In this document: piece after piece, positions 40,596-49,054 of the stretch | How the letters are laid out: each line of letters starts with the position of its first letter | Numbering within the stretch: the stretch's first letter is position 1 | Assembly: GCA_039818205.1 (NCBI GenBank) | Contig: JBCBUK010000009.1 | Span: forward strand, 32,001 to 96,000 | Direction of reading: 5' to 3' | Length of the DNA stretch: 64,000 nucleotides | Source of the DNA: Verrucomicrobiota bacterium | Lineage (GTDB): Bacteria > Verrucomicrobiota > Verrucomicrobiia > Opitutales > Cerasicoccaceae | Notes under the pieces: model-generated | Databases searched by the model: none | What the model was told of the DNA's origin: nothing | The model's input: the letters and a program-made list of their open reading frames with translations, nothing else | Translations under genes and position numbers: made by a program

Positions 40596-41372
40596 CTAGC
40601 CCCCAAAGAAGCCGTCGATGAATTCGGAATAGGTTCCGAGGTTCGGATCGTTGTCGACCAATTGATTCGGGTCGCGAATTGGGCGGTATCCCGAGATGGA
40701 GAAAGGTTGATTCGGAATGGTTTCGTCAGCCAACGATTCATCATAGTGGAAGGGGCCAGGAACGCCGTTAAACGTCGCATTGTAGGCCAGGATTGCGCCG
40801 TAGAACGCACCTTTGTTACCACCACCATTGGACGTGTAGATCGCTTCTGGCGCGTAAAGAACCGCGGCGAGATCAACATTTCCGTTCATCGTGATGCGTT
40901 GGCGGTCAGCATCGGTCATGGTTTCGTCGTCAAACTCCTGAGTCGCATAGAGTTTGAGATTCTTGGGCCGACCCTCGTTGTTGATCGAGGCATTGCCGCT
41001 CATGGTGAAGTCGCCGGCGAAATAGATGACGACTTCGGCACTCGCGGTCAGAGTCGGGTTTCCCGAAATGGTGATGTCGCCATCGGCGACGATGGTCGTC
41101 GGTCCCACAAAAGTGATGTCTCCTAGGGCCAGATTTTCTTTGATGTGGTAATACTCGGGAGCAAGCTCGCTGCCGCCAATCGTCATTGTCGCGGCAGCCG
41201 CACTGGGCGTCACGCTGATGCTAGCTCCATTGCCCAGCCCCACGCCACTGTTACCCTTGCCGTTTTCATTTTTGCCGTGCGCGGTGAACGCGGCAACTGA
41301 GAGAACTCCGCCCAGACCGACTAATAGGGCGAGGGTGATTCTACCGTAAGGCTTGGATGTATTTGTTTTCAT
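40596..41372 (-). CDS. Secreted beta-solenoid protein (cassette 2), resembling the C-terminal half of large PilX-like proteins
   Basis: Signal peptide; G/N-rich beta repeats ITISGN, FTMSGN, VLYAPEA, GAILA, FHYDESL. Confidence 0.75.
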   Translation of the reverse strand: MKTNTSKPYGRITLALLVGLGGVLSVAAFTAHGKNENGKGNSGVGLGNGASISVTPSAAAATMTIGGSELAPEYYHIKENLALGDITFVGPTTIVADGDITISGNPTLTASAEVVIYFAGDFTMSGNASINNEGRPKNLKLYATQEFDDETMTDADRQRITMNGNVDLAAVLYAPEAIYTSNGGGNKGAFYGAILAYNATFNGVPGPFHYDESLADETIPNQPFSISGYRPIRDPNQLVDNDPNLGTYSEFIDGFFGG

Positions 41373-41392
41373 GGTTCAGGGATGTAAAAGAG

Positions 41393-42253
41393 TTAGTTAA
41401 GCGAGGTTTGCCAGACGGTGATGTCGCTGGTGTCTGGCACGGTGATTACCGGGAACTCGGCGGTGAACCCGGTTTGGATCTGCCCCGTGATTTGTTTTAC
41501 TTTGCTTGCGTCGATGTTGGAGGCGTCTTCGGTTCCAGTCACGAGATCGCCCCGGATATCGGTTTGAGGCCCGAACGATACCTTGATCGCATCGCTATCC
41601 TCGGAAACGGTTCCCGCAGTCGCGTTTTGGCGTTCCTGATTGGTTGCTGGTAGCCCATAGAGGCCGACTTCCGAGTCGTAACTGTCGATCAGCGAATTGT
41701 AGTCCAACTCGTTCTTCACGATAAGACCGCGGAAGGGGACGTTCAGTTCGGCCGTGAAAGATATAATACGCTCGGCACTGCGGTTGGTGCGAGTATCGGT
41801 GACGACACCTTTTGCGTAGACGGAGTATTCCTGCCGGGAAGCATCCTGGCTCGGTTTATTGACCACGACCCGAATGACTGCCTGGTGGTCTCCATCAAAA
41901 ATGTCATCGCTGCTAGAGTCACCTTCAGGCAGGAGAATTTCTTTGGTCCAATATAGGTCACCGTAAAAGTCTTTACCCTCGGTCCAGCCGTCATCAATCC
42001 AAGCGGTTTCGTCGAATCGATTGTTGTTCATACCCCACATGACTTCGTCCGCACCGGCTTCAGCCGCCGCGAAGGCCATATTGTAGAGGCGGTTTTGGAC
42101 ACTTGATTCGTAATCATTGACGGCCATTGGCATCAGTGAGCCCAGGACAACGAAGACGAACATTGAAAACAGAAATGCAGCAATCAAAGCAGAGCCCTTC
42201 TCCCGCCACAGGGCGGTGAGCTTGGGAAGTGCTCTATGGAATTTTCGGGTCAT
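41393..42253 (-). CDS. PilX/GspK-like minor pilin (cassette 2)
   Basis: REKG|SALIAAFLF type IV leader lacking E5, AFAAAEAGADE, FRGLIVK, IDSYDS. Confidence 0.8.
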   Translation of the reverse strand: MTRKFHRALPKLTALWREKGSALIAAFLFSMFVFVVLGSLMPMAVNDYESSVQNRLYNMAFAAAEAGADEVMWGMNNNRFDETAWIDDGWTEGKDFYGDLYWTKEILLPEGDSSSDDIFDGDHQAVIRVVVNKPSQDASRQEYSVYAKGVVTDTRTNRSAERIISFTAELNVPFRGLIVKNELDYNSLIDSYDSEVGLYGLPATNQERQNATAGTVSEDSDAIKVSFGPQTDIRGDLVTGTEDASNIDASKVKQITGQIQTGFTAEFPVITVPDTSDITVWQTSLN

Positions 42254-42256
42254 ATA

Positions 42257-42817
42257 TCAGTTTCGGGGCGTAACTCGAGTGGTCGACTCTTTGGTGTAGG
42301 CGGAACCACCGGCTTTGCGCTCGGTGATTAGGGTAAAATCATAGCTGCCGGTTCCATCGACCCGTTCGACGGAAAATTCAGTAACATCTTGGAGAAGGCG
42401 TTTGGTGTTATTGTTTAGAACCAGGCCTTGGGCTGAATATTCCGCGTATGCTCGCCGTAATTCGGCATTGTCGGAAACCATGTAGGTGATCTCGGTGCTC
42501 ACCGGGGTAACGCCGTTTTCGTTTTCGAAATTTGGCAGGGTAAGCACGACCGAGTAGGGTTCGTCGTCTTTATCGTCCTCAGGTTCGTTGATCTCGATGG
42601 ATGTCAATCCGCGGAAGTCATCCGCGATATGATTAACGACATAGCGGAATTCGCGATCCATATCTGCCTGAGTAGCAAGGCTGTAGTGAACCTTGCTGAA
42701 CCTGATCATCGCGGAAAACGCCATCGCAAAAACCACGATCGCTAAGGATGCAGCAATCATCACTTCGACCAGGGTAAAGCCGAGAGAGGATGCGGATCGC
42801 TTACGCGCTAATTCCAT
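42257..42817 (-). CDS. PilW/GspJ-like minor pilin (cassette 2)
   Basis: SLG|FTLVEVMIA N-methylation motif; C-terminal TRVTPRN. Confidence 0.85.
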   Translation of the reverse strand: MELARKRSASSLGFTLVEVMIAASLAIVVFAMAFSAMIRFSKVHYSLATQADMDREFRYVVNHIADDFRGLTSIEINEPEDDKDDEPYSVVLTLPNFENENGVTPVSTEITYMVSDNAELRRAYAEYSAQGLVLNNNTKRLLQDVTEFSVERVDGTGSYDFTLITERKAGGSAYTKESTTRVTPRN

Positions 42818-43220
42818 ATTGAGTGATGAAGGTTACAATTTTTGCGTTCTGCGGTTTCCCGCTGCTATCGGTCCAGCCGACTTCAAGGACTACTTGGAGC
42901 TGGTCGTCGCGATTTTCGCGTTTTGCGACTGAAATGGATGTTGAGAATCGTTGATCATTCGACTCGGTGACAAACTCTGAATCGTCGGAAATTTCGCCAA
43001 CTGCCTCCCAGCTAAGGCCGCGAATTCGCTCGAGTTCTGACAATAGCAATTCATTGGCCGCAACGTTCAACCGGCTGTTCTCGGACGCCCGCATCGCCGG
43101 CTTTAACGCAACAAATGCCGATGCCATAACCAAGGCAACAAGAGACATTGCTACCATGACTTCAATTAAAGTCATGGCCGATTGGGGTCTTTTGGCCTTA
43201 TTGGTGGGAGCCAAACGCAT
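42801..43220 (-). CDS. PilV/GspI-like minor pilin (cassette 2)
   Basis: QSA|MTLIEVMVA; SELERIRGLSW; LEVGWTD. Confidence 0.85.
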   Translation of the reverse strand: MRLAPTNKAKRPQSAMTLIEVMVAMSLVALVMASAFVALKPAMRASENSRLNVAANELLLSELERIRGLSWEAVGEISDDSEFVTESNDQRFSTSISVAKRENRDDQLQVVLEVGWTDSSGKPQNAKIVTFITQYGISA

Positions 43221-43296
43221 CTGTTTGGTTAATCTGTGTTCGTTGCTAGAGTCTTTAACTCATGTTTGTATCGATATTTCGCTTCAATTGCTAACT

Positions 43297-43322
43297 AAAA
43301 CGACGCCCCCCAGGGAGCGTCG
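43297..43322 (-). terminator. Terminator between the two pilin cassettes
   Basis: Minus strand CGACGCTCCC-TG-GGGGGCGTCG-TTTT. Confidence 0.65.
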
Positions 43323-43357
43323 CCAAGCTAAATAAATTTTTTATAAATCTGAGAGGC

Positions 43358-44314
43358 TTAGAAGGTGGCGAAGAAGTCTTCGTAGGAACCATTCTGGGGA
43401 TCACCTTGGAAGTCATCCTTGGCCTTCATGATGCGGTAGTCTTCCATGATCATTGATTCGGTTCCGAGTGCCAGGTCTTTCAAGGCTTCATCGTAGTTCA
43501 GGCCGTTGAATTCGTGATTGGTAGACCCCTGTCCGTTGTTGGAGATCGTATTTGCGATTACCGCGCCGAGCATCCCGGAGGTTCCCTTGATGCTGAATGA
43601 CGCATCCGGCGCATAAATGACGGCTGACAATCCAGCGTTACCCCCCAGTCCAATGCTTTGGCCGTTTCCGCCGGTGCCGTAGATGATGAAGCTTGCAGGA
43701 GGGGCGAGGGTATTCACATCGCCGTTGCCCTGCAGGCCGACATCACCTTTTACATACATCACGAGCGTCGAGTCATCAGTGATTTGAACCTCTTGATTTT
43801 TGAAATCGAATCCCTGGTCCGCGATTATAATCGCATGGCCATCAATGACGACGTTGTTGCCCAGTGAGAAGTCGCTCGAAAAGTGAATGACGCTCGGACT
43901 TTCCTCGGTGCCTGGCGCATAGATCGTGGTTACGGCATTCGCGCCATTACCCTCGGTGACAGAGTAGAGCTGGGAAGCACTGATGGTGTCTCCACTGCCA
44001 TCGTCTGAGTCATCCAGTCCTAGATCGATCCCAAAACCAGATGATTCGTTCGTATCCGTTGCATCCGTTGCATCCGTGGTATCGGTTGTATCCGTAGTGC
44101 CGGTAGAATCTGTCGTGTCGGTGGTTGTGCCCGTTGTTGTATCGGTCGTGTCAGTGGTGTCGTTTTTATCGTTCTTCTTCTCTTGGCCTGGGTTTGTTTT
44201 ATCCTGACCCGTGCTAGCCGGTTTTTTGGCTTGGGCCACCGAGGGAAGGGCGACCATGAGGAAGCCCGATAGCATTAAGCTAAAGGCGATGTGGCTGAGG
44301 CGTGAAAATTTCAT
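43358..44314 (-). CDS. Secreted beta-solenoid protein with Thr/Asp-rich linker (cassette 1)
   Basis: Signal peptide ending AQA; DTT-repeat linker; MYVKGDV, IIYGT, AVIYAPDA, GAVIA, NYDEAL. Confidence 0.78.
   Translation of the reverse strand: MKFSRLSHIAFSLMLSGFLMVALPSVAQAKKPASTGQDKTNPGQEKKNDKNDTTDTTDTTTGTTTDTTDSTGTTDTTDTTDATDATDTNESSGFGIDLGLDDSDDGSGDTISASQLYSVTEGNGANAVTTIYAPGTEESPSVIHFSSDFSLGNNVVIDGHAIIIADQGFDFKNQEVQITDDSTLVMYVKGDVGLQGNGDVNTLAPPASFIIYGTGGNGQSIGLGGNAGLSAVIYAPDASFSIKGTSGMLGAVIANTISNNGQGSTNHEFNGLNYDEALKDLALGTESMIMEDYRIMKAKDDFQGDPQNGSYEDFFATF
44051..44161 (-). repeat. Degenerate 9-bp coding repeat (DTT/DAT/GTT tripeptides)
   Basis: Encodes DTTDTTDTTTGTTTDTTDSTGTTDTTDTTDATDATDT. 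Confidence 0.8.
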
Positions 44315-44338
44315 AATACGAGCGGTTGGGAATGAGAA

Positions 44339-45169
44339 TTAAAACAGGGAAGGACCGTTGTTGCCGGACGAAGACGGATGCTCAACGGAGGGGAAATTTG
44401 CCGTGTAGTTGGTGGTCTGGCTCACGATGTTTCCATTGTAGGTGACCGCATCGCCAAAGACGCTTGCGCCAGTTAGCACGTTACCGATCTGAAGGGCAGT
44501 CATGCCGGCTTGCGTTTTTGAGTTGGAGCTCGAGAGCAGAACCGAGTTGTCTGAAGTGCTCAAAGAGCCACCTTGCCAATCGCTGTCGCGGCCATTCAGA
44601 GCGTCTGGGACACTGGCGAAATCGTTGGTGTTCGTTGCCGCAAGGATTGTTCCTGATCCAAGGTCCATTGTGTCTTTTGATACGAAGCCGATAAACGGTT
44701 TGAGTTGATCGGTGTCAATCTGGACGATCTGGTTGAGGATGTCGGCACCGGAACCATCGACAACGATACCCTGTGCGATGACTTCCATTTCTTGGCCCTC
44801 GACGGGCTCTTTGACGGCCACCTTGGCATAACCAGTGTATTCGCCACCCAAAGTGACTCCGGGAAACTGAACGCGGCGAACGTAGTAGTAGGCACCATCA
44901 GGGCCAAGCTTCTTGGTCCAGTCGCGATCGGCGTCCCACATGGCCGTGTCCCAGCCATTTTGGTAGGCGGACCAGATCGCCTCTTCGCCACCTGCCTCAG
45001 CAAGGGCAAAGGATGAGGATAAAAGTCGGTTTTTAACGGCCATGCGGTAATCGCCCATATAGGCAGGGAGCATGGTTCCAACCATGATGAAGGCCACCAT
45101 GGTGAAGAGGATCGCGGCGATGAGCACGGAACCTCGTTTTGAATCTGTTGTCGTTGGGGTCGGCTGCAT
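44339..45169 (-). CDS. PilX/GspK-like minor pilin (cassette 1)
   Basis: KRG|SVLIAAILF, SFALAEAGGEEA, FIGFVSK; paralog of 41393-42253. Confidence 0.8.
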   Translation of the reverse strand: MQPTPTTTDSKRGSVLIAAILFTMVAFIMVGTMLPAYMGDYRMAVKNRLLSSSFALAEAGGEEAIWSAYQNGWDTAMWDADRDWTKKLGPDGAYYYVRRVQFPGVTLGGEYTGYAKVAVKEPVEGQEMEVIAQGIVVDGSGADILNQIVQIDTDQLKPFIGFVSKDTMDLGSGTILAATNTNDFASVPDALNGRDSDWQGGSLSTSDNSVLLSSSNSKTQAGMTALQIGNVLTGASVFGDAVTYNGNIVSQTTNYTANFPSVEHPSSSGNNGPSLF

Positions 45170-45170
45170 G

Positions 45171-45677
45171 TTAGTTCCTCATTCTGATGTTCAAGTCGCG
45201 ATCGAGAGTAATGTTCCGGTCTCCGATGTCTTTGCTCAGGGTGACCGAAAATGAAAGTGAGTCGTTGGATTGGCTGGCGGTAAATTTGCTCACATTTTCG
45301 AGCAGAAGACGTTCATCGCCGCTGTCTTCCTGGCGGTAGATATTGTCGCCACGGTAGATGTAGTGTATGAGCTGCGGTGTGTTGCCGTTGGGCATAGTCA
45401 ATGTGCAAGAGCCACTGCTTATGGAGGCATTTGCGGCCATGCGGGCATCGTCAGAGAGCTCTTGGATGGTCATGCGCATCTGGCGATCGAAGTCGGATCG
45501 CGCGGCCATGGTCAGGTTCGTTTTGTAGAATTGAATGAACATGCCGGTCGCGCCCGTGAGGATAAAAGCCGCAATTGCAATGGCGACGAGGATCTCGGCG
45601 AGGGTGAAGCCCTTGTGAGAGGCCTGCTTACGACGCGCTGACGCCGCTTTTTGTAACGATAGTGACCAAGTTTGCAT
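45171..45677 (-). CDS. PilW/GspJ-like minor pilin (cassette 1)
   Basis: HKG|FTLAEILVA; C-terminal IRMRN; nearest in-frame ATG is 45677, overlapping the upstream gene by 50 nt. Confidence 0.82.
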   Translation of the reverse strand: MQTWSLSLQKAASARRKQASHKGFTLAEILVAIAIAAFILTGATGMFIQFYKTNLTMAARSDFDRQMRMTIQELSDDARMAANASISSGSCTLTMPNGNTPQLIHYIYRGDNIYRQEDSGDERLLLENVSKFTASQSNDSLSFSVTLSKDIGDRNITLDRDLNIRMRN

Positions 45678-46086
45678 TGTGAGTCTTTCCTTTGGTGTCC
45701 GTCCAAGAAACTTCGAGTAGGATTTCCATTTGATCAGAGCGACTTTCACGGTTGGTTAGAGAAATGGCGCTGGCCAAACGATTGTTGGTGCTCGCAGTGT
45801 AGAAACTGAGAGATTTGTTGGAATCTTTGGCGTTGTCGTAGTTGGTTTTCAAAGTCTCGATCTCCGACCAACTCAACGAGCGAATATACTCCAGTTCTGA
45901 TTCGAGGTGAAACTGTGCATCGGCGTTTAACCGCGCAGATTCAGATGAACGGAATCCGATTGAGAGGGTGGCCATAGTCGAAAGAAAAACCATAGCGATA
46001 ATCACTGATCCGATCATAACTTCAACGAGGGTAACTCCCGAGTGAGCGCCTGTCGTTTTTGTTTTAATTCCCATATTTGCCATCAT
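45628..46086 (-). CDS. PilV/GspI-like minor pilin (cassette 1)
   Basis: HSG|VTLVEVMIG; SELEYIRSLSW; LEVSWTD. Confidence 0.85.
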   Translation of the reverse strand: MMANMGIKTKTTGAHSGVTLVEVMIGSVIIAMVFLSTMATLSIGFRSSESARLNADAQFHLESELEYIRSLSWSEIETLKTNYDNAKDSNKSLSFYTASTNNRLASAISLTNRESRSDQMEILLEVSWTDTKGKTHNANLVTIVTKSGVSAS

Positions 46087-46123
46087 GATAACATTATTGG
46101 GTGGATTTCCGACAGAGCTTTAG

Positions 46124-46190
46124 GGGAAGTTTTAGGCCCCCAACTCAACAGGGCTGCATGGTCCTACTGTAGTTAGGACTAATTCGTCAT
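46124..46190. promoter_or_regulatory. Three spaced imperfect palindromes (RGGAC-N6-GTCCY-like), candidate response-regulator boxes
   Basis: GGGAA-N6-GGCCC (46124), AGGGC-N6-GTCCT (46150), AGGAC-N6-GTCAT (46175); 25-26 bp period. Confidence 0.4.
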
Positions 46191-46739
46191 TGATCTCAAA
46201 AGAATGTAATGAGTAAGAAGTTTCGACATTCATTACTTGCTCAGTGGCATTGTTTTGACGTAGTGATTCCACCTTGCCCTTGGTAAATATATGCAAATGT
46301 ATTTCTGTTTCGATTTTTCTTAAAATGAGTCTATGAATAAACTTCTTTTCACTGATGTAATCTGGGCTTTCAGCGTTTTTTACAGATCCAATTATGGCGG
46401 TATTCTAGTGGCCTATATTCGCTGATTTTCTCTAGAGAACTGGCGCTCAACGGGAATACTTCAGAGTCCGATTCACTATTGTTTACCAGATTCTTTGTTG
46501 GAGGAACCCTCTAATCGACTCGCAGAGCAAAACGGAAACAGTTTCCTTAAAAAACCAGTTTGATGAACTATTTTGGTAAACTATTTCATGTGAGTGATCA
46601 TAAGGCTAATCATGGAGAATCTGTCACCTTTGACCATAATATGCACGAGCCTCAATTAAATCGGGATGTTTTCGCAGGCTGGTTTGTTGGCCCAGTGTTT
46701 TCGCTCGGATTTCGTGTCGATTCCAGTCACCGTTGAATC

Positions 46740-48368
46740 ATGAATCCCGGCTTAAGCATCTGGAACCGTCTGCTGGGCGTCATGCTCGTACTGGTGCTTT
46801 CGGCGGGAGGATTGCTTTTTTGGCAGGAAAGGATAGCGGAGCGGGCGAGTGAGCGAGAGTTGCGTGCTTCGATCGAAGATCGGCAAGCGGCATTTCAGCG
46901 CACAAGCCGTCAGCTCTCGCAGTCGTTGATCGATTTCGTGGTGGTGGAAAGCCGCACGAGCTTGCCAGCCAAGCTGGAGTCGGGCCGGGCGGGGGCTGTT
47001 GGCGCCGAATTAGAAACATCTGCGGATGTTGCGCGGGTTGACTGGTTTGCCCTCTTTGGTACGAATGGGGAGCTCCTCTCGCTATACAATGGAACGCAGC
47101 GAACTCCCAGCGAGAATGCTCTGCCAATTCCGGCGGCAACGCTTCAATCGCTTGCCAATGACGGGGAGGATGCGATGTTTTTCTCAGCACAGTTTGGGAT
47201 TCCGATGCAGTTGGTGTTTTCTCCGGTTCGCAGCGCTGATGGCGATTCCAATTTAGGTTATCTGCTCGCTGGTCGGTATTGGGATCGTCGTTATTTGACC
47301 CAGCTAGGAAACTTGGTGGACGCGCAAATTAATTTCGTACCGCTGGATCGAGTTGGTCCGGCTGCTTCTGGATTTATTGACGGCGGAATATCATATCAAG
47401 TGACGGAGCTCGGGCTTGGCATTTCGGGCCAGCCCCTGTTTGCCTACACGGTGACTTATGACCTGTTGGAAGATCGTATGGAGTTTGCGGAGGTCAAGGG
47501 AGCGCGTAGGCGGGTGGCGCTTGGTGTCGTTGGCTTACTGGTTGTATTCTTTGCCGTGCTATGGAAGTGGTTGGCTTTTCCTCTGCGGCTGGTTGCAGAG
47601 GCGCTTGAGAAGGACGACCCGACGGTTCTCAAACCGATCCTCAACGAGGACTATGATTGGGCCAGAATCGCTCAGCGTCTGACCGAATCAAGCGAGGCCC
47701 GACTTGAGTTAACCAAGCAGGTCCAACGCCGGCAGGAGCAGCTTCGCATCGAGCAGGAGACGACCAAAGTCCGGCAGTCCCTGGCTCGAGATTTGCACGA
47801 TGGCGTAATTCAGAGTGTGTATGGCGTTGGCCTCCAACTGGATAGGGTGGGCCGATTGGCACAAAAGGATCCCGACAAAAGTCGGAAGAGTATTCGAGAA
47901 TGCCAAGAACAACTCAACGGCATTATTGGTGAGATCCGGGGCTACATTAAAGGGCTGGACCCCAAACCGCTTCAGGGACAGGGACTTAAGGATGCCTTGT
48001 CTCAGCTGGTCACGAATTCGCAGCGATCAACCGACGCCAAAATCGTCGGTGACTTTGATTCGGAAAGCTGCGAGGCGCTGTCTGCCAGTGAAGCCATAAA
48101 TATTTACCAGATTGCTCGGGAGCTGCTCAGCAACGCGATCCGACACTCGAAAGCGTCCCAGATTCGGATTCGGATGGAACGGTTACCTAAAGCTGTGTGT
48201 CTCACCGTTTTGGACAACGGCACCGGAATCGATTTGGAGGCCGCTCGAAATAAGGGAAACGGTTTAGGCAATCTCGAAAATCGCGCTCGACAAATGGGCG
48301 GTAATATTGAGTTTAGTAACAGGCATGCAACGGGATTAAGTGTATCCGTGACGACGCCGATAAAATAA
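46740..48368 (+). CDS. Membrane sensor kinase (periplasmic CHASE4-like domain, HisKA_3/NarQ-type)
   Basis: Two TMs flanking the sensor; LARDLHDGVIQ, ELLSNAIRHS, DNGTG, GLGNLENRA. Confidence 0.9.
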   Translation: MNPGLSIWNRLLGVMLVLVLSAGGLLFWQERIAERASERELRASIEDRQAAFQRTSRQLSQSLIDFVVVESRTSLPAKLESGRAGAVGAELETSADVARVDWFALFGTNGELLSLYNGTQRTPSENALPIPAATLQSLANDGEDAMFFSAQFGIPMQLVFSPVRSADGDSNLGYLLAGRYWDRRYLTQLGNLVDAQINFVPLDRVGPAASGFIDGGISYQVTELGLGISGQPLFAYTVTYDLLEDRMEFAEVKGARRRVALGVVGLLVVFFAVLWKWLAFPLRLVAEALEKDDPTVLKPILNEDYDWARIAQRLTESSEARLELTKQVQRRQEQLRIEQETTKVRQSLARDLHDGVIQSVYGVGLQLDRVGRLAQKDPDKSRKSIRECQEQLNGIIGEIRGYIKGLDPKPLQGQGLKDALSQLVTNSQRSTDAKIVGDFDSESCEALSASEAINIYQIARELLSNAIRHSKASQIRIRMERLPKAVCLTVLDNGTGIDLEAARNKGNGLGNLENRARQMGGNIEFSNRHATGLSVSVTTPIK

Positions 48369-48370
48369 GT

Positions 48371-49054
48371 GTGATAATGACGACCCAGACTCCAACCAAA
48401 GTATTAATTATTGAAGACCACGAAGTAGTCCGCCTTGGGCTGCGCCAGATCATTGGAGATTTCGACGAATTCAATTTGGTTGGGGAAGCAGGTACCTGTG
48501 CGGATGCCTTGACGGTTTATCAGGAAAGCCAACCGGACGTTGTTTTGCTCGACCTTATGCTTCCAGATGGCAGTGGCCTCGAGCTCTGCGCAAAATTGCG
48601 CTCCTTCGAGCATAAATCGAAAATCATTGTCCTGACTTCTTGCGAAGATGACCGATGCATTTTTGATGCGTTTGCGCAAGGTGTTGAAGGGTATTTGTTA
48701 AAGAACGCAAATGGCGAATCCTTGGTGAATGCCTTGCGCGATGTCATGCTAGGAAAAACGATCCTGGATCCATCCGTTACTCAGCACGTGGTTAATCACT
48801 TGCGGGATGAAGGGCAGAGCAAACAGGAAGACTTGATCAATACGCTTTCCGCACAGGAAAAACGTGTCCTCGAACAAGTCGCCAAGGGCTTAACCAATAA
48901 GGAAGTAGCCGCGGTTCTCAGCCTCAGCGAGAAAACCGTCAAAAACTATTTCAGCAACGTTTTGAGCAAGCTCTACGTTTCCCGACGCACCGAAGCAGCG
49001 GCACTATACTGGCAGTTCAACCGCCAGAACGAAAACTATCCGCTCGGGCGATAA
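48371..49054 (+). CDS. NarL/DevR-family response regulator (REC + LuxR HTH)
   Basis: IIEDHEVVRLG, LLDLMLPDGSG, GLTNKEVA, LSEKTVKNY, RRTEAA. Confidence 0.93.
   Translation: MIMTTQTPTKVLIIEDHEVVRLGLRQIIGDFDEFNLVGEAGTCADALTVYQESQPDVVLLDLMLPDGSGLELCAKLRSFEHKSKIIVLTSCEDDRCIFDAFAQGVEGYLLKNANGESLVNALRDVMLGKTILDPSVTQHVVNHLRDEGQSKQEDLINTLSAQEKRVLEQVAKGLTNKEVAAVLSLSEKTVKNYFSNVLSKLYVSRRTEAAALYWQFNRQNENYPLGR

Follow-up and report, generated by a model that had tools for sequence, protein, structure and literature searches.

A putative ComZ-like tip pilin split into two chains, predicted to be exported separately, in Opitutales pilin cassettes

Why would two neighbouring pilin cassettes each carry a PilX-like gene that stops early and is followed, within 24 nucleotides, by a second gene with a leader of its own? 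This question is raised by positions 40,596 to 45,169 of a 64,000-nucleotide stretch of DNA from a Verrucomicrobiota bacterium of the Cerasicoccaceae (assembly GCA_039818205.1, contig JBCBUK010000009.1, positions 32,001 to 96,000), referred to here as the window. Two four-gene cassettes lie in this part of the window (40596..46086), both on the minus strand and each ordered pilV-pilW-X-S. X is the third gene, after V-like and W-like pilins, and its product has an N-terminal pilin helix without Glu5. An earlier note, made from the letters alone, proposed that X and S are a functional fission of one PilX-like protein, and that S is an adhesin or cargo domain that is exported separately, docks by solenoid complementation and could be swapped between cassettes or released. 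Here we present evidence that the pair is likely to be a split ComZ-like K pilin, in which S is exported via Sec, rejoins the anchored X, completes its solenoid and its pilin sheet, primes the tip and stays on it.

Results

Re-reading the sequence confirmed the motifs, gaps, leaders, linkers and C-termini as first noted. In cassette 1, X1 (44339..45169; 276 aa) is predicted to consist of the pilin helix, a pilin sheet and the first solenoid coils. It ends 11 residues past the motif FPSVEHP (44375..44395), which lines up with its counterparts in other split proteins and in fused ones and is placed at the start of a long loop along the solenoid. S1 begins after 24 nt (43358..44314; 318 aa), with a signal-like segment at residues 1-29, a Thr/Asp/Gly linker to about residue 126, a DUF7305 solenoid part and a C-terminal strand and helix. 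In cassette 2, X2 (41393..42253; 286 aa) ends 13 residues past FPVITVP (41435..41455), and S2 begins after 20 nt (40596..41372; 258 aa), with a signal-like segment at residues 1-31, a Gly/Asn linker to about residue 60 and the same downstream parts. The X1/X2 and S1/S2 pairs are each about 27% identical (27.5% for X1/X2), and X1 and S1 carry insertions of their own.

On another contig of the same genome, C18, a single open frame matches X in one part (45158-45877) and S in the part that follows (45971-46408), and we collected 143 full-length fused homologs, which bears out the suggestion that the halves are normally one chain. All ten close X2 homologs are of X-half length and are named as Cerasicoccus or Puniceicoccales proteins. 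Neither X1 nor X2 had a family match under E 0.01, and S1 and S2 matched Pfam DUF7305 (E 6e-24 and 5e-23). Among 401 genomes sampled from the order, 106 had an S-profile match (150 match rows listed, 89 not). Among the matches listed, split cassettes occur in at least 11 of the 401 genomes, and all 11 also carry a frame of at least 440 aa, confirmed as fused by translation in seven.

The break is conserved. At 20 of 20 full junctions from 15 genomes, X ends shortly past the same proline motif. These genomes include G004 and, further, L092, L095 and L096, and the 12 with handles span four family codes. The X-S gaps range from -1 to 34 nt and fall in all three frames; because the junction recurs in this way in 14 other genomes, the stop codons do not stem from misassembly. 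Across all 12 comparisons made, pN was 0.15-0.24 against a saturated pS of 0.76-0.84, and by this measure both the X and the S halves are under purifying selection. The proposal of a functional fission rather than decay therefore holds, given the conserved break and the selection on both halves.

At their N-termini, S1 and S2 have a basic n-region; next come a hydrophobic stretch, with Kyte-Doolittle means of 2.42 and 2.55 over the best 11 residues, and the low-complexity linker. The hydrophobic N-terminus reached at least 2.0 in 20 of 20 S proteins (range 2.0-3.2), and the n-region was positive in 17 of 17 examined. Just after the break, 3 of 29 fused proteins reached 2.0, with a median of 1.47. 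By this heuristic, the difference suggests separate export of the second half, as the earlier note had supposed. Cutting fused proteins into halves dropped 10 of 39 fused ORFs (those listed being eight without the motif by pattern and one split S) and left 29 of the 38 distinct rows.

The model of the fused C18 protein had a pLDDT of 96, and its best Foldseek match was ComZ (E 1.7e-6). Residues 122-389 aligned to an ice-binding solenoid (Z 18.4, rmsd 2.7, 197 aligned), and the model aligned to GspK with Z 9.7 and rmsd 2.9 over 98 residues, reaching model residue 412. The matches to GspK, XcpX and S. sanguinis PilA reach model residues 408-412; therefore, the solenoid appears to be inserted before the last pilin strand. 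The break coincides with a strand-free stretch at about residues 225-243, which we take, given the coil order of that fold, to be the loop joining both ends of a discontinuous solenoid, consistent with the X2-S2 contacts given below. On this reading, the cut falls within the long loop of a discontinuous solenoid of the ice-binding type. Four fused relatives (P0053, P0066, P0067 and P0070) carry long Thr/Tyr-rich insertions at the split site. A search of solved-structure sequences with the fused profile returned nothing below E 0.02, and PF11999 (DUF3494, ice-binding) had no sequence match in X or S, the likeness being in fold only. A solenoid ahead of the last pilin strand is described for ComZ (PMC6561018) and for cyanobacterial PilX (PMC13759059).

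The same comparison suggests what the cut does to the pilin domain, for which GspK is the closest of the solved K-type pilins. The model of X2 alone (pLDDT 86, helix 2-59) aligned to GspK 29-300 (Z 7.8, rmsd 2.5, 85 aligned), XcpX 44-301 (Z 5.0) and PilA 12-125, whereas the fused protein aligned to GspK 29-315, XcpX 44-316 and PilA 12-139, so that X2 alone stops 14-15 residues earlier on each. The last-strand columns of the fused proteins (fused-model strand 398-406) align with S2 residues 223-232 (40677..40706), and orthologous S1 rows align with these columns at residues 287-296 (43427..43456). The models therefore predict that the pilin sheet of X is missing its last strand and that S carries this strand and supplies it in trans, an arrangement that is new here. 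Both S1 and S2 end in a similar C-terminal helix; in S2 this aromatic helix (40605..40637) is typical of the split clade, is conserved among split S proteins and lies partly, at residues 248-256, in the modelled interface.

The X2+S2 pair scored 0.83, against 0.00 for the best of three controls, with 239-243 contacts, at least 94% contact agreement between runs and a partner pLDDT of at least 87. Of 157 solved complexes, 116 attain the pass mark, as do 2 of 215 mismatched pairs; these rates apply roughly, since our alignments were custom-made. The surest pairs join X2 177-194, the first coil, with S2 194-212, the last coil. The interface lists also include X2 161-170, the FPVITVP motif, S2 223-232 and the S2 tail helix, with the named residue pairs confined to the solenoid. 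As the two chains are halves of a split gene and fused halves entered both alignments, what the pass indicates is resemblance to the fused fold, not binding in the cell. Docking by solenoid complementation, as first proposed, is in line with this model. The fold, the position of the break and the X-S interface are predictions from models only.

One group in the S tree unites 39 rows, split or else stand-alone and signal-bearing, with the fused P0142 amid 69 fused rows (SH-aLRT 97), with 2 changes of state where shuffling gave 32 on average; the stand-alone rows come without genomic context, and the sample is biased because they were found with a split-protein profile. Without the tail columns the support of the split clade dropped to 78 and one more fused row fell inside. 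In the X tree, 20 split rows grouped with the fused P0228, a cluster mate of P0142 (support 96). An approximately unbiased (AU) test on 38 of the 108 S-tree rows rejected a split group without P0142 (p 0.00016), and the 20 split X rows standing together without P0228 were not rejected (p 0.58). The simplest reading of these trees is one fission and one re-fusion, and repeated fission at the same seam may also have occurred. When the X and S trees of the 20 pairs were compared, all four strong S-tree splits were also strong in the X tree and no strong conflict appeared, hence no sign of gene-level swapping. Sequence comparison establishes homology to one chain, a conserved break, selection and co-inheritance.

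S1 and S2 had no PF05567 (PilY1 beta-propeller) match and are homologous to the solenoid instead. Conservation does not extend to the linker. In one S cluster (P0090, P0229), a full ice-binding-like domain sits between the leader and the S part; a search for longer S fusions within 540-2000 aa gave three weak matches, the 355-540 aa range lying outside it, and an atlas look-up returned DUF7305-type clusters only. The genomic context of the cargo-bearing P0090 and of the fused P0142 was not found in the metagenome collection. S is mostly the larger part of one solenoid and not a free cargo domain; a cargo domain of its own appears in the cluster of P0090 and P0229 only.

Discussion

We propose that each cassette would be a tip-initiation set of a type IV filament, with PilV, PilW and X corresponding to GspI, GspJ and GspK. 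The cut would have fallen in the long loop within the discontinuous beta-solenoid of a ComZ-like K pilin, leaving X with the first coils and with the pilin helix as its membrane anchor, and S would have gained a signal peptide by which Sec takes it to the periplasm. There, the last coil of S would stack on the first coil of X, and the C-terminal strand of S, backed by the aromatic helix, would complete the X pilin sheet. The X-S dimer would then join V-W and prime a pilus on the shared type IV machinery of the cell. S would remain as a tip subunit with a role like that of PilY1, its freed N-terminus presenting a low-complexity tail that varies and, in occasional cases, an additional domain. 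Export, licensing, tip location and adhesion are steps that we infer: that S licenses the V-W-X tip and stays there is suggested by analogy with known systems, and adhesion or DNA capture by the tip may be considered from analogies only.

Several points weigh against this mechanism. The Sec signal of S is called by a hydrophobicity and charge heuristic, not by a signal-peptide predictor, and the comparison of ranges on GspK and XcpX builds on the modest Z values of X2 alone. The pairing of the S2 strand with the X2 sheet is read from the interface lists together with that comparison, and the X2+S2 pass could stem from resemblance to the fused fold and to ComZ. The modelling covered the fused C18 protein, X2 and X2+S2. 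The cassettes themselves hold no ATPase, secretin or major pilin; elsewhere in the genome there are six PilT-family ATPases over the cut-off, seven further PilB/GspE-like ATPases and five secretin matches.

The several GspE-like ATPases and secretins, the nearness of the pilin domain to GspK and the export signal of S would also suit another account, in which a type II secretion pseudopilus has S as a transient partner or as cargo to be released: S would dock to X within the periplasm and then be shed from the cell. We regard this as unlikely. X without S would be an open solenoid with an unfinished sheet, about 240 contacts are modelled between them, and secreted substrates do not strand-complement the K pilin, strand-donating adhesins being retained (PMC12918778). 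As X appears to lack its last strand and S carries the strand that PilY1 supplies in trans, S is probably a retained, structurally required tip subunit, and the proposed release of S is not supported, as S would complete two folds. The idea that the S halves are interchangeable, so that X1, X2, S1 and S2 mix into combinatorial tips, draws on the presence of both pairs in one locus with the same fold and on the fact that, in complex scoring, close cousins of a true partner can dock. It is nevertheless improbable: across five genomes, all 10 junctions have X1 followed by an S1-type and X2 by an S2-type gene, the low identity of the pairs and the insertions in X1 and S1 speak against it, and the agreement of the X and S trees, which bears on gene-level swapping only, gives no support to the suggested exchange between cassettes.

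A nearly neutral fission, in which the dimer does the same job as the fused pilin and gains no new property, is compatible with the docking mechanism and differs from it only on benefit. The fused P0142/P0228 inside the split clade, the long-frame copy in all 11 split-bearing survey genomes (among the matches listed) and the unconserved linker agree with it, whereas the split has been kept across families and through a duplication, and one S lineage has gained an ice-binding-like domain at its freed end. We consider it possible, though on the doubtful side. That the breaks are decay, assembly errors or recoding readthrough is, by comparison, hardly credible, even though broken family copies are common. 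Twenty regions around short or doubtful frames comprised five split cassettes, seven copies broken elsewhere, two short intact genes, four running off contig ends and two intact fused genes, and the fused pilin family thus seems to decay often. The seven broken copies (L075, L076, L077, L080, L081, L082 and L084), however, have insertions or frameshifts at other sites and, by eye, no signal-like start. The true junctions share one site in all three frames, with a hydrophobic leader between two selected halves, and for these reasons decay, assembly error and readthrough are rejected.

As a pair, X and S make up a two-chain ComZ-like pilin that would work like PilX plus PilY1, yet S is not a PilY1. 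Like ComZ of Thermus thermophilus (PDB 6qvi), both the fused homolog and the split pair have, in their models, an ice-binding-type solenoid inserted before the last pilin strand. ComZ and the cyanobacterial solenoid PilX (identity 10-13%) are single chains with the last strand in cis, whereas here a stop, a gap and a new start occur at both junctions and the second gene has a signal-like leader. According to PMC12918778, assembly and tip retention depend on a C-terminal strand that completes the K pilin; this strand comes in trans from PilY1/PilC and MshQ and in cis in GspK and CpaL. In PilX/PilK with PilY1/PilC and MshP with MshQ, a separately exported protein encoded after pilVWX donates this strand; S is its predicted counterpart. 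PilY1/PilC and MshQ also resemble S in placing variable N-terminal modules on a carrier (PMC8179133). S differs from them in having no beta-propeller, in its size of about 250-350 aa, in being a piece of the K pilin itself that also completes the solenoid, and in carrying 25-35 residues of tail after the strand, which is therefore not at the extreme end. A PilY1 family search found no match in this genome and none over the cut-off in 151 genomes of the phylum; controls were equally without match, so absence is not shown.

Another pilin fission is that of Geobacter PilA-N/PilA-C (GSU1496/GSU1497): the N-half is anchored, the C-half, encoded next to it, bears a signal peptide (PMC5174107), and the two associate as a heterodimer (PMC11046646). 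There, a major pilin is cut after its helix; here, the cut in a tip K pilin falls within an inserted solenoid, and one genome holds both fused and split forms. Among DUF7305 (PF23981), pAdhesive_15 and DUF3494 ice-binding-like solenoids, S is a DUF7305 member and the whole solenoid matches ice-binding proteins, although DUF7305 covers mainly the half after the loop and an ice-binding function is not implied. We found no description of this split X/S system in the literature searched, most subscription papers being outside its reach.

If the proposed mechanism is correct, the pair would be, for this group of Opitutales, a natural half-way form between tip pilins that are self-contained and tip adhesins that are secreted on their own, and a natural split of an ice-binding-type solenoid at a topological seam. 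Tentatively, a PilY1-like tip subunit may have arisen independently inside a K pilin, one cut and a signal peptide having moved the licensing strand from cis to trans; initiation would then have become conditional on a second exported protein with a free N-terminus for new domains, in a step that looks reversible (P0142/P0228). In PMC12918778, the origin of separate adhesins is placed only on a deep phylogeny. Fused and split tips in one genome would, if the reading is true, be a living model of that origin, and the step from cis to trans is directly testable, since both states occur in one family and one genome and the cut site is known to a few residues.

Cassette neighbourhood and related loci

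The V and W proteins carry prepilin N-methyl motifs. V1 (45628..46086), a PilV/GspI-like minor pilin, has a weak TIGR02523 pilV match below the cut-off (E 1e-4), and W1 (45171..45677), PilW/GspJ-like, matches PF07963 (E 1e-6), with ComGF/GspJ-like matches below the cut-off; its frame is open from 45749, and the ATG at 45677 is the likely start. In cassette 2, V2 (42801..43220; PilV/GspI-like) matches PF07963 (E 1e-7), and W2 (42257..42817; PilW/GspJ-like) has weak N-methyl, T2SSJ and GspJ-like matches. The Verru_Chthon families TIGR02596-02600 gave at best 15.6 bits, against an NCBIfam cut-off of 70, in the leader region only. Scans for promoters and terminators stayed at chance level (6 vs 5.2 and 7 vs 7.0). 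By eye, a GC-rich hairpin followed by a short T run can be seen between the cassettes on the minus strand at 43300-43325; the scan did not list this hairpin.

Divergent from the cassettes, on the plus strand, lie a HisKA_3 sensor kinase and a LuxR-type response regulator (46740..49054). This conserved neighbour is a candidate regulator, and a similar pair adjoins the cassettes in G001, G002, G003 and G010 (five genomes in all). In G001, G002 and G003, a divergent fused-pilin cassette sits between the split cassettes and the sensor-regulator pair; tblastn found no remnant of such a cassette at 46087-46739 of the window. G181 has a similar back-to-back layout of a fused and a split cassette.

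Further relatives were seen in the survey. Intact 365-aa proteins at L078:5102-6199 and L079:4900-5997 seem to lack the pilin sheet, the solenoid following almost at once on the pilin helix. C18-type fused cassettes, but not split ones, are followed by a small gene (L037:8465-9001, with similar ORFs in L039) whose product has a hydrophobic N-terminus and matches no Pfam family. What remains at L097:5037-5309, behind a fused cassette, is only the 3' end of a split-type S; it has no preceding X, and a split cassette has probably been deleted here. The same S-domain fragment occurs with its flanking genes three times in G039, with transposase-like ORFs alongside in the fetched region (L038).

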